Source of the DNA: a virus
Lineage: Duplodnaviria > Heunggongvirae > Uroviricota > Caudoviricetes
Virus record (IMG/VR): IMGVR_UViG_2537561932_000024
Span: 1-29,493 of that record
Length of the DNA stretch: 29,493 nucleotides
Direction: 5' to 3' (one strand)
Position 1 is the first letter of the stretch. Every line of letters starts with the position of its first letter. The position numbers are program-made. Of this stretch, positions 6,001-9,000 are shown piece by piece.

Positions 6001-9000
6001 AAGCCCTGACTGTTCCCGCAGTTGGGGCTTCAACGTTTTTCCACTTCATTTTGAATTTGCTTAAGTAGCATATTTGTCTCGTCAAGCCTCTTGTTAATAC
6101 GGTCAAGGCTTTCTACTAAATCGTTATGTGCATGTGATACCTCGTAATTTGAGACTGATTTCTTTTCCTCTATCGTCTTTGTCAATCGTTCCCCTGATTG
6201 ATACATATTGATTAACGATGTAAAAATCACGAGCAAGCAAACTACAATGATTGCGCCAGACAAAAATTGTAAAGAACGATCAAGCAATGACACCTTCATA
6301 CCGTTATCCCCTCTCTCTTCAGGCTGTCCAGCACCCGCTTGTAAATCTCAGAGTTAACAGATCGCCCGTTCTCTTCAGCTACCTTGCGCACCAAATCCAA
6401 CACTTCTTTAGGCCACCGCAAATTGAACTGCGGCATTTTGCTCATTCCTTTCATGTTCACCTCACAATATAGGTCCACCGTGGACCTATTGAGAATATAG
6501 TAGAGTGCTTCTATCATGTCAATACACTAACTTGGAGTGATGGCATGGCTAGAGATGATCCGCACTTTAACTTCCGTATGCCTTTGGAAGTAAGAGAAAA
6601 ATTGAAATTAAGAGCCGAGGCTAACGGAAGGTCAATGAACTCTGAGTTATTACAAATCGTTCAGGATGCTCTCTCAAAGCCATCACCGATTGCAGGCTAT
6701 CGCAACGAAGCTGAACGCTTGGCTGATGAACATTCGGATATCGTAAAAAATATGGTATTCGAAACTTTAAAAAAACTTTATGGAAAAGAAAAGAATGAGT
6801 AATAAAGAGCTTGTTAAAAAATCAAATAACTGTGTCGATGCATATGCTGACTCATTTGGATACTCTTCATTTGGTGACGGTTCCCAGCGATTAGGTTCAA
6901 TTTCTTTTTTTCATAATGTAACTGAATGGCCTGTTGATGAAAGCGGTGATGTTGAAAACATAAAGTACAATATTGCCACCATTAGAATGCCTGAAGAATT
7001 GATGCTTAAATTGGCGGACTTCATTCGCGACCAACATTATAAGGCTAAAACAAACGAGTCGTAATCAATGATGAAACACGATTATTACGAAGCTCCAAAT
7101 CTAACTGAAAAGCTTGAACAAGCGGAAAAATCATCATCTTTGTACACAAATCCAATTTCTCAGTCATCAGGAATGTCTGGCATGAATATGGGCATGCTAC
7201 AATCAAGTGGTGGTGGAGCTGGGAGTAACAACATGCTTGAGGCTAGGGTTGCACGGTTAGAGGCAGATGTTGAAAACATTAAGACCAATCTATCTGAGGC
7301 AAGGTCTGACATCTCTCGTTTGCGTGATATCTCAGCTGATACATCCAGAGATGTTGCGGTGGTCCTGCAAAAAATAGTAGATGTAGACGAAAAATTATCA
7401 AAAAAACCGAGTAAGAGCGAAGTCCAGACATTGATCTCTACTGCAGTAAACAAGCAAATACTATGGACCATAGGGACTGGATTTGCTCTTTTAGGGATAG
7501 CTAAATATATATTTTAGCTCACCTCATCAGCTATCTTCTTGTTCCATTCACTCAGCGCCACTGCTAGGAAAACTAAGGAGGTTGGTGTGAAGAAAAAATT
7601 TTTAAACGTTGCAAAGTGCGCAATTTTTATATTTTTTATGACCTTTTACGGATTTAGTGCCGGAGAAGGTTTCGATCGTGATGCCAATGCATTCAGTTTC
7701 TTTTGTCTGTCTATAGTGGTCATAATTGTATGGGTGGAATTAAAGCAAACATTGTTTCATGTGCTAGGGAAATAACCATCCATGGCATTTAGTCACTGCT
7801 GTGTTGCCTCAGTGGCAAGCAGCGGTCTGATGGCATTTGCAGCGTTACTTAATGCTCTTTCATAGGCTGGCGTTCCTGCTTTGGTGTTTGCCAGACGTAA
7901 GAGCGCATTCCTGGCCATAGGGCTTTCATAACCCCTCGACATAAGGCCAATCCCTGTTTCCCCAGCCAATAGCGCGCCTCCGGTTTTTAGGTTACCAATA
8001 ACCCTTACCAAAGGCGCGAGTGTCATGCCAGTCTTCGTCACAACATTAGCCTCAGATGCTCTTTTGGTAGCATCGAGAATAGATAACATCCCCTCTATCT
8101 CTTTTCCGTTCTTCCCACCAAATACAGTTTTAAACACCTGACCATTTGCTTGTTTTTGCAGCTTGCCAAGCTCGGTCATCATTTTCTGAGGGCTGTCACC
8201 TACCTTGTCAGCTATTTTGCTGATATATGCCGCCCTTAGCATGTCTTTACCTTTTTGATCGAGTTTCCCGTACAATCGAGCTATATCTGACCCATATTGT
8301 CCATACACAATGGTATTTACAGCCTCGGGAGTTAAATCTCCTTTGTTTAGAACGTTTTTAAGGCGCGTTTGAGTTGCATGTGTTGCCATTTTTGCATAAT
8401 CAGCTTTTCCCGCTCTCCATGCTGAAGCATCTTTTGGGCTAAGTCCTTTCGCTATAGATTTACTAAGGCTATTGGTTAGCGAGTTGTAGACCCTGTTGAT
8501 CATTGTTTGCGACATTGATGGCAGAACTGTACGATCGCCTTTTACGTCAATGCGGAACTGAGTTCTCAGCTTATCAAGTAACTCAAAGGCATCATCTCCA
8601 TTTGTTATCTCCTGAATGGCATTCTTATAATCATTAAGCGCAGAAATGGTCTGGGTGTCAGAAACACCTTTAAGTTTCCCAAGTTCGTTTACTGCTCCGT
8701 CGATGGCTCTTATGGCGCCACTTGTATCAACTGGCTTTCCAACCATTCTTCCTGACAGGTTGTTTAGTTTTGACTTGGCTAACGATTTTTCCCTTGCAAC
8801 GCCTGACTTTAGACTATCAACGACTACAGATGGATCGTAGTCGCCGTATTTTTCGGTGAAGCGATTAACAAGCTTGGTTCTGGCATCCTGCTGTGCGGCT
8901 CTCATTGGTCCAGTACCAGCTATGACTCCTTCTGAGTAACCCTGCAGTTGATTGCCAAGTTTTGTTTTTGGAGGAACTACATCCGATGTCATAACTGGTA

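Follow-up and report, generated by a model that had tools for sequence, protein, structure and literature searches.

We describe a mobile two-gene cassette, referred to here as A+B, that lies directly downstream of the mnt repressor gene in a P22-like (Lederbergvirus) prophage of Escherichia coli. The cassette was studied in a stretch of 29,493 nucleotides (IMG/VR record IMGVR_UViG_2537561932_000024; hereafter, the window), which covers the late and immI regions of the prophage. Gene A encodes a small soluble protein, and gene B a coiled-coil protein with a C-terminal hydrophobic segment. The pair enters unrelated prophage types, typically behind a repressor gene, and A can be replaced by other partners, each of which comes with a matching N-terminus of B. 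On the basis of these positions and by analogy to known systems, we tentatively propose, with somewhat less than even confidence, that A+B could be a lysogen-expressed two-component accessory system that excludes other phages or aborts their infections. A third gene, C, shares the locus and is inherited separately.

Organization and distribution of the A+B cassette

Across positions 6400-7900, the window matches three complete E. coli chromosomes at 100% identity and Salmonella phage UPF_BP1 at 98.9%. The genes follow the order ant (minus strand), an extra 89-amino acid (aa) open reading frame (ORF; minus strand), arc, the divergent promoters Pant and Pmnt, mnt (plus strand), A, B, C and, lastly, the convergent ejection-protein genes 16 and 20—with gene 16 forming the convergent boundary of the slot that holds the accessory genes, or morons (Table 1). 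An earlier note on this DNA had described A, B and C as three AT-rich genes co-directional with mnt. This description proved sound, as NCBI's Prokaryotic Genome Annotation Pipeline (PGAP) called all three at the same coordinates in the 100%-identical E. coli strain 503440 (C with a GTG start), and their G+C content (A, 0.36; B, 0.40; C, 0.34; for comparison, mnt, 0.39) lies below the 0.464 of the window. The reported coupling of A to mnt was also borne out: the ATG of A overlaps the mnt stop by 8 nt, and B starts 3 nt past the stop of A in the same reading frame, with only TAA TCA in between. The ratios of nonsynonymous to synonymous substitution rates (dN/dS) were 0.045-0.10 for A, 0.105 for B (compared with the Klebsiella ortholog) and 0.34-0.38 for C, by which each of the three genes is under purifying selection.

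Homology to P22 ends inside mnt, at about position 6765, and the same interval in P22 contains orf59a, the mnt terminator, the sieA promoter and sieA. P22 itself lacks A, B and C, which agrees with the earlier view of these sequences as accessory genes in the sieA slot; as expected of morons, close relatives differ in whether they carry the cluster, and its G+C content is atypical. No promoter or terminator was predicted within the cluster, where local folds were unremarkable. A and B leave no room for a promoter of their own and appear to use Pmnt, and C has a strong Shine-Dalgarno (SD) sequence with no promoter found for it. A consensus scan placed a promoter upstream of mnt at the very position of the annotated P22 Pmnt (in an 87.6% alignment to P22). 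Since the close packing of mnt, A and B leaves no space for a promoter between them and the predicted one coincides with P22 Pmnt, expression of mnt, A, B and perhaps C in the lysogen is likely, as the earlier note had anticipated.

The idea of a single three-gene module, also put forward in that note, had to be abandoned on account of independent inheritance: A+B enters unrelated prophage types without C, and C follows other cargo without A+B. Another 215 complete E. coli genomes contain gene A together with the first ~58 codons of B, with a nucleotide identity of 77-84%. The A-type pair occurs in 219 of 5,426 complete E. coli genomes (~4%), including O26 Shiga toxin-producing E. coli (STEC), and the full version seen in the window in only 4 of the 5,426; among 497 matching genomes, 4 carried the whole cluster. 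In the three lambdoid prophages inspected, the pair sits right after the CI/S24 repressor and before kil-gam-bet-exo, without gene C. Homologous cassettes lie behind the repressor in HK544, in VT1-Sakai and in prophages of E. coli, Klebsiella and Enterobacter. In HK544 (gp41/gp40) and the Stx1 phage VT1-Sakai (ECs2991/ECs2992), they occupy the interval between cI and PL—the rexAB slot—and a depositor-annotated pRM terminator directly follows the pair. Moreover, among the 51 distinct proteins whose genes immediately precede that of the partner, 37 were repressor-type (33 HTH_3 and 4 Arc/Mnt); within the same set of 51, 22 matched Peptidase_S24 and 13 matched Phage_CI_repr, and genuine lambda CI was among them.

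Additional copies occupy sites that likewise hold cargo: past ogr in the terminal part of a P2-like prophage, in Salmonella siphovirus 29485 between its tail tube and chaperone genes, and inside E217-like myovirus tail modules. Most occurrences of A+B are in siphovirus and myovirus prophages. Two positions of the cassette are already recognized for their cargo: the cI-N interval is a mosaic hotspot that holds RexAB and BstA (Owen et al., PMC8585504), and the slot between gene 16 and mnt houses sieA (PMC10883804). ECs2991 was detected in the proteome of an O157:H7 lysogen grown in rumen fluid (PMC3936929), which is direct evidence for the presence of one distant partner in a lysogen, not for the copy in the window.

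Some of the prophages that carry the cassette harbor other genes of potential interest. In a lambdoid E. coli prophage with an A-type cassette (locus L004, 172-2067), we observed a NACHT-domain protein beyond ren and, within the early left operon, a DGQHR-domain protein; the two are possible defence genes. In a P2-like prophage with a remote partner and B beyond ogr (locus L106, 5666-7255), an unannotated 529-aa gene with no Pfam match sits between gpD and ogr and is probably further cargo.

Modular architecture of the B family and its coupled partners

We examined 92 loci containing a B homolog—79 from IMG/VR, with the others fetched separately. A co-directional ORF abuts or overlaps the start of B in 86 of them; partner-less B genes are rare, yet they exist. 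The partners fall into four clusters, i.e., the A type (86-94 aa), the HK544 gp41/ECs2991 type (93-97 aa), a CxxC...CxxC zinc-ribbon type (112-126 aa) and a type of 132-187 aa. None of the partners matched Pfam or PADLOC, the best PADLOC E value among 44 partner proteins being 0.0077. Remote homology between partner families was considered and rejected, as hhalign probabilities for the A type against the gp41/ECs2991 and zinc-ribbon types were 0.2-0.4%.

The part of B that precedes the linker tracks the type of partner, with 0 of 300 label permutations giving as strong an association, and the core and the anchor of B are only weakly associated with it (7/300 and 9/300 permutations, respectively). 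Within a given partner type, the C-terminal sequences of B form several clusters: five or six in each of the two largest types and two each in the two smaller ones. Furthermore, the lambdoid copies are homologous to the window at the nucleotide level only as far as position 7240 or 7270, which corresponds to the linker/core boundary. We infer from these patterns that the unit of exchange comprises the partner and the adaptor region of B, and that the adaptor docks the partner.

Structure predictions covered A and B as single chains. In the AlphaFold2 (AF2) model of B, a short helix (residues 12-24) is followed by a disordered segment rich in Gly, Ser and Met (25-52), a long helix (53-111), a KKPS break and a terminal helix that ends in ILWTIGTGFALLGIAKYIF. 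Homologs keep only the last ~94 residues of the protein. A profile search of 1.84 billion representatives, in which family size was counted as cluster representatives at 50% identity, returned 1,289 proteins with E<=0.001 and 99 with E<=1e-10. Almost all of these proteins are 80-190 aa long and share one plan: a variable N-terminus, a GGGGG-type linker, a conserved coiled coil that starts 'MLEARVAKLE' (core motif 'M(L/E)(E/A)RVAKLE(S/A)DVE.IK') and a C-terminal hydrophobic segment. Pfam searches with the family gave sub-threshold coiled-coil matches only (FlaC, XhlA, LPP and DUF2730). B covers only positions 127-265 of the 276 in the PHROG 3556 profile, so that some members of this family may be longer or fused.

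A crude hydropathy test detected a C-terminal transmembrane segment in 102 of 139 relatives of B. The anchors in these relatives are clearer than that of B in the window and, by our own reading, belong to five recurring, interchangeable types. For the window protein, the terminal stretch yielded Kyte-Doolittle values of 1.57 over 19 aa and 1.85 over 15 aa by hand calculation. The earlier description of B as a tail-anchored coiled coil therefore holds for the long predicted helix and, at the level of the family, for the anchor, but B's own terminal hydrophobic stretch is marginal and the tail-anchored reading leans mainly on its relatives. As we read the family sequences, there are more basic residues ahead of the anchor than behind it, a bias that suggests an N-in topology for B.

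Gene A was modeled with AF2 as three antiparallel β-strands and a C-terminal helix (predicted local distance difference test score of 78), and fold searches with this model gave weak, generic matches only. The protein has no hydrophobic segment. A and B share a direct repeat of 24 nt, the two copies of which are identical at 21 positions. Deletion between these copies explains a natural 134-aa A-B fusion protein (P0012). The motif 'VENIK.N' is also present in distant A homologs from Serratia, so the resemblance between the repeat copies may exceed recent gene conversion.

A putative internal start within gene B

An in-frame ATG (Met56) marks the beginning of the conserved core of B in the window, with an SD-like GGGAG located 7 nt before it. 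Of 53 distinct loci, 51 have an ATG where the core begins. Among 49 distinct upstream stretches, GGAGG occurs 7 nt before this ATG in 37 and within the interval from -15 to -5 in 43. By comparison, 2,000 trials in which synonymous codons were redrawn for the same peptides gave an expectation of 16.5 ± 3.2 and a maximum of 28. Codon -4 is GGA in 38 of the 49 stretches, compared with 19% GGA among the glycine codons of the virion genes in the window. The glycine linker thus doubles as an SD element—an arrangement that suggests the production of a second, 94-aa form of B (B-short) next to the long form (B-long), the start of which is coupled to the stop of A.

The short form is often the one called by gene callers, as in P0011 (128 member sequences), P0091, P0097 and others. 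The N-terminal region of B is coding as well: the frame is open for 16-90 codons upstream of the core in the loci examined, and in the window the other two frames are closed across this region, where dN/dS is 0.12-0.6.

Gene C and neighboring genes

The product of gene C has two hydrophobic helices, and AAGGAGG lies 5 nt upstream of its GTG codon, which matches the earlier description of a two-transmembrane protein with a strong SD sequence. The stop codon of C is always 17 nt from that of gene 16, behind varied cargo. Phages phiv205-1 and JEP4 carry C without A+B, and Salmonella and Serratia-like prophages contain copies with 77-81% identity behind a lipoprotein or a Rap1a-domain protein. In avian pathogenic E. 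coli (APEC) O2-211, A+B is retained and C is replaced by a secreted protein of 122 aa; in a Klebsiella relative, the position of C is taken by an unrelated two-helix protein of 75 aa. Across relatives, the gene-16-proximal slot holds SieA, lipoproteins, Rap1a-like proteins or HK620 hkcB. We conclude that C is an independent small inner-membrane moron, and the content of the slot fits an envelope-directed role.

Several observations on this slot are recorded here in their own right. Gene C is unannotated in all three GenBank phage genomes that carry it (UPF_BP1, phiv205-1 and JEP4); in bacterial genomes it is called by PGAP, and Salmonella prophages carry it very commonly (one variant alone accounts for 326 assembly-collection blocks). 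The cargo of the slot includes three uncharacterized envelope proteins: a 161-aa lipoprotein with the lipobox LAGC (L015, 3483-3968), a Rap1a-domain protein with a fold resembling type VI secretion system immunity proteins (L018, 3644-3991) and the 122-aa secreted protein (L005, 3707-4075). The 161-aa protein that precedes C in Salmonella was considered as a SieA candidate and dismissed, as it is a lipoprotein instead.

The product of the extra ORF between arc and ant (orf89) has a membrane helix at its N-terminus and then a coiled coil, the same architecture as that of HK620 hkcB from the sieA slot; Pant would drive its expression. At this position, P22 contains nothing but the sar RNA region. 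A role for orf89 as the cognate partner or anti-factor of A+B was rejected, since UPF_BP1 and Klebsiella phages carry A+B without it. Finally, two adjacent tRNA genes lie upstream of the lysis genes of the prophage.

Table 1. Features of the window discussed in the text (positions in nucleotides from the first letter of the window).
Feature	Position	Strand	Evidence or remark
ant	5089-5967	-	
orf89 (89 aa), PHROG 27312	6030-6299	-	between arc and ant
Pmnt-like promoter, TTGAGA-17-TATCAT	6489-6517	+	consensus scan; presumed driver of mnt-A-B, perhaps C
Pant, divergent	6522-6494	-	
mnt repressor gene (85 aa)	6545-6802	+	Pfam Arc 1.4e-27, Repressor_Mnt 3e-16
Gene A, soluble partner protein (89 aa), PHROG 4231	6795-7064	+	start overlaps mnt stop; PGAP
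Direct repeat, copy 1 (in A)	6948-6971	+	encodes DVENIKYN
Gene B, long form (149 aa), coiled coil and C-terminal anchor, PHROG 3556	7068-7517	+	PGAP
B N-terminal adaptor region and Gly/Ser-rich linker	7068-7232	+	partner-type-specific, inherited with gene A
SD-like GGGAG in B	7221-7225	+	7 nt before ATG 7233 (Met56)
Putative B short form (94 aa), coiled coil and anchor	7233-7517	+	inferred from internal start
Direct repeat, copy 2 (in B)	7266-7289	+	encodes DVENIKTN
B C-terminal hydrophobic segment ILWTIGTGFALLGIAKYIF, predicted membrane anchor	7458-7514	+	sequence; predicted helix 116-148
SD of gene C, AAGGAGG	7575-7581	+	
Gene C (62 aa), two membrane helices, PHROG 21338	7587-7775	+	GTG start
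Gene 16, DNA ejection protein	7793-9658	-	annotated in records that are identical or nearly so; Pfam Phage_P22_gp16 match at related loci
tRNA genes Thr-TGT and Asn-GTT	25199-25354	-	

Comparison with known exclusion and lysis systems

In the records and libraries searched, A, B and C are annotated only as hypothetical, in line with the earlier remark that none of them is a characterized protein. Their PHROG matches are three families of unknown function. Against PADLOC-DB 2.0.0, A and C gave 0 hits and the best match for B was PDC-S66 (E 0.039), and a profile search of Protein Data Bank sequences returned generic coiled coils only (Lpp and GCN4).

SieA, which blocks DNA injection by P22-like phages, is the natural reference for this slot. 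A, B and C bear no resemblance to SieA, orf59a or HK620 hkcB and hkcC, a comparison with sieA and hkcC having been suggested in the earlier note; BLASTP of the three proteins against P22 SieA (type A, of types A-C) gave best E values of 0.63-1.7. SieA shares with them its slot (between genes 16 and 9), the same orientation as mnt and its nature as a prophage-expressed membrane protein (PMC10883804). However, it is a polytopic protein of 164 aa with a promoter of its own, and the polytopic topology and length of about 160-200 aa that characterize the SieA family are found in none of the three: A has no hydrophobic segment, B has one marginal segment and C has two helices in 62 aa. Moreover, A+B is not confined to P22-like phages, and a protein such as B, with almost nothing in the periplasm, would be a poor fit to a SieA-like block of the injection conduit.

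RexA (~279 aa) and RexB (a four-helix membrane protein) of lambda abort infections by other phages via loss of membrane potential. Like these proteins, A and B are a soluble and a membrane protein, and their homologs reside in the cI-to-PL slot within the PRM transcription unit—in the window, the equivalent of cI is mnt. The pair is likewise dispensable and variable between related phages. In contrast to RexA/RexB, the partners of B are 86-187 aa long and belong to four unrelated families, and B combines a single C-terminal anchor with a coiled coil. No significant PADLOC or Pfam match to RexA or RexB was obtained, although the presence of RexAB models in PADLOC was not checked and no direct sequence comparison was made.

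XhlA (PF10779), a lysis-associated protein of PBSX, resembles B in being small and in having its coiled coil at the N-terminus and its membrane segment at the C-terminus. Relatives of B score 21-22 bits against XhlA (cut-off 34.7), and B itself has no XhlA match at E<=1 and a weak match to the XhlA-type PHROG 937 (E 0.002). Yet XhlA belongs to a lysis cassette with a holin and an endolysin, whereas B lies behind repressors with a coupled partner and a Gly-rich adaptor, and no holin or endolysin was found beside the cassette in the contexts inspected. The releasin gp25 of phage Mu is also comparable, being a membrane-tethered, largely cytoplasmic, acidic and helical protein of ~100 aa that acts at the inner face of the membrane; nonetheless, it has an N-terminal transmembrane domain and is encoded at most five genes from the endolysin in Mu-like phages (PMC9239132), whereas the anchor of B is C-terminal and the genomic context of B is different. 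A link between the B family and DUF2730/releasin was discarded: 12 of 100 remote members touch the DUF2730 model, 0 of 10 hand-picked ones do, the topology is opposite and B in the window gave no match to it.

The internal start of B recalls dual-start genes such as P22 sieB/esc and lambda S107/S105, in which an in-frame internal SD sequence and ATG yield a truncated product beside the full-length one, with the second product antagonizing or tuning the first. The truncation of B would remove the partner-docking adaptor rather than a topology determinant, and in this case the two products are predicted from the sequence. HK97 gp15, a membrane exclusion moron inside a tail gene cluster, parallels the copies of the cassette in tail modules. 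BstA, in turn, is encoded downstream of a prophage repressor and shares its promoter (PMC8585504). Both BstA and HK97 gp15 differ from A+B in being single proteins, and neither has any sequence relationship to it.

Proposed function and alternative explanations

We propose the following model. A+B would be a mobile accessory cassette that the lysogen expresses from the mnt promoter. B would use its C-terminal anchor to attach to the inner membrane on the cytoplasmic side and would oligomerize via the conserved coiled coil, with its variable N-terminal segment, on a flexible Gly-rich linker, docking soluble A. In the wider family, the four unrelated partners would take the place of A, each with a matching N-terminus of B. 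The partner may thus act as the specificity or sensor subunit and B as the membrane effector, in a manner analogous, not homologous, to lambda RexA/RexB. The adaptor-less 94-aa form, probably made from the internal ribosome-binding site, could mix into the oligomer and set a threshold. C would be a separate small inner-membrane moron of the gene-16-proximal slot. The assignment to defence is a guilt-by-position argument, which is now stronger given that the cassette also occupies the rexAB slot of lambda.

A number of points weigh against this model. No member of the B family has an experimental tie to phage resistance, and the literature searched mentions the genes only in one proteome list. 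Neither A, B nor C had a significant or cut-off match in Pfam, NCBIfam 2026 or PADLOC 2023, B contains no enzymatic or pore-forming domain, and a hydropathy scan of B found no segment at 1.6 or above, its single hydrophobic segment being marginal. The interval from mnt to gene 16 yielded no predicted terminator, and adjacency to repressors could reflect a regulatory link instead of shared expression. Both A-B binding and the short isoform derive from sequence patterns only, and the neighbor genes in the 92 loci come from a longest-ORF heuristic.

Other functions were considered. The cassette could be a toxin-antitoxin or addiction module, with B as a membrane-active toxin and the partner as its neutralizer, such that the prophage is stabilized and any defence is a by-product. 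The order of a small neutralizer and then an effector, translationally coupled, is that of type II toxin-antitoxin operons, partners are swapped against a conserved effector and the short, adaptor-less isoform could be the active toxin. We regard this explanation as unlikely: the partners have no DNA-binding domain for autoregulation, the cassette borrows the promoter of a repressor and has none of its own, partner-less B genes exist (rare as they are) and no toxin-antitoxin family was matched. A similarly low probability is assigned to a regulator of the phage's own life cycle, i.e., a membrane-tethered factor acting on induction, the lysis-lysogeny decision or the timing of lysis by analogy to the RexA/RexB switch, XhlA or Mu releasin. 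The pair does lie beside the maintenance repressor at most loci, family members have a weak, sub-threshold resemblance to XhlA, membrane-tethered cytoplasmic Mu gp25 acts in lysis (PMC9239132) and RexA/RexB is reported to aid the transition from lysogeny to lytic growth (bioRxiv 10.1101/2021.04.19.439022). Nevertheless, the presence or absence of the cassette among close relatives indicates that it is dispensable; the copies at P2-like ends and within tail modules lie at a great distance from any repressor; and the XhlA scores below cut-off and the contexts free of lysis genes described above argue against such a role.

Lysogenic conversion unrelated to phages—through effects on host envelope physiology, stress tolerance or virulence—would agree with the frequency of the A-type cassette in prophages of O26 and other STEC, with the detection of the ECs2991 partner in O157 in rumen fluid and with the lipoprotein and Rap1a-domain protein among the neighboring slot cargo. 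We consider it quite improbable, as no domain points to a host target and the combinatorial diversity of partners is more typical of conflict systems. Very improbable, in our view, is a SieA-type block of gp16/gp20-dependent injection by P22-like phages. In its favor, the slot is that of sieA, and C is a two-helix inner-membrane protein always encoded beside gene 16. On the other hand, A+B and C are inherited independently, SieA similarity is lacking and almost nothing of B would reach the periplasm; A+B is found mostly in siphovirus and myovirus prophages without gp16/gp20, which makes a gp16/gp20-specific block unlikely for this pair.

The proposal that A+B acts in exclusion or abortive infection can be extended to the whole family, and we hold this extension to be rather doubtful. 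Here, B-family proteins would be the common effector of a large, unrecognized set of combinatorial prophage anti-phage systems, in which sensors dock on matching adaptors, anchors are swapped and the adaptor-less isoform sets a threshold or makes the resident phage immune to its own system, like Esc in the case of SieB.

Prophage morons in exclusion slots are a known kind of element; the novelty here lies in the modularity of adaptor and partner, the shuffling of anchors, the wide extent of the family and the internal start, the conservation of which offers a concrete handle for genetics. Slots after repressors (rexAB, bstA) and beside gene 16 of P22 (sieA) are proven sources of exclusion and abortive-infection genes, and the cassette is found in both kinds of slot as well as at P2-like ends and moron sites in tail modules. 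Should its function not be defence, A+B would still represent a very common lysogen-expressed membrane module. If the defence reading is correct, the cassette would provide a small design of two proteins that is easy to engineer—a sensor that can be swapped and a tail-anchored effector with a coiled coil—and would help explain patterns of phage resistance in lysogens that are relevant to phage therapy and typing.

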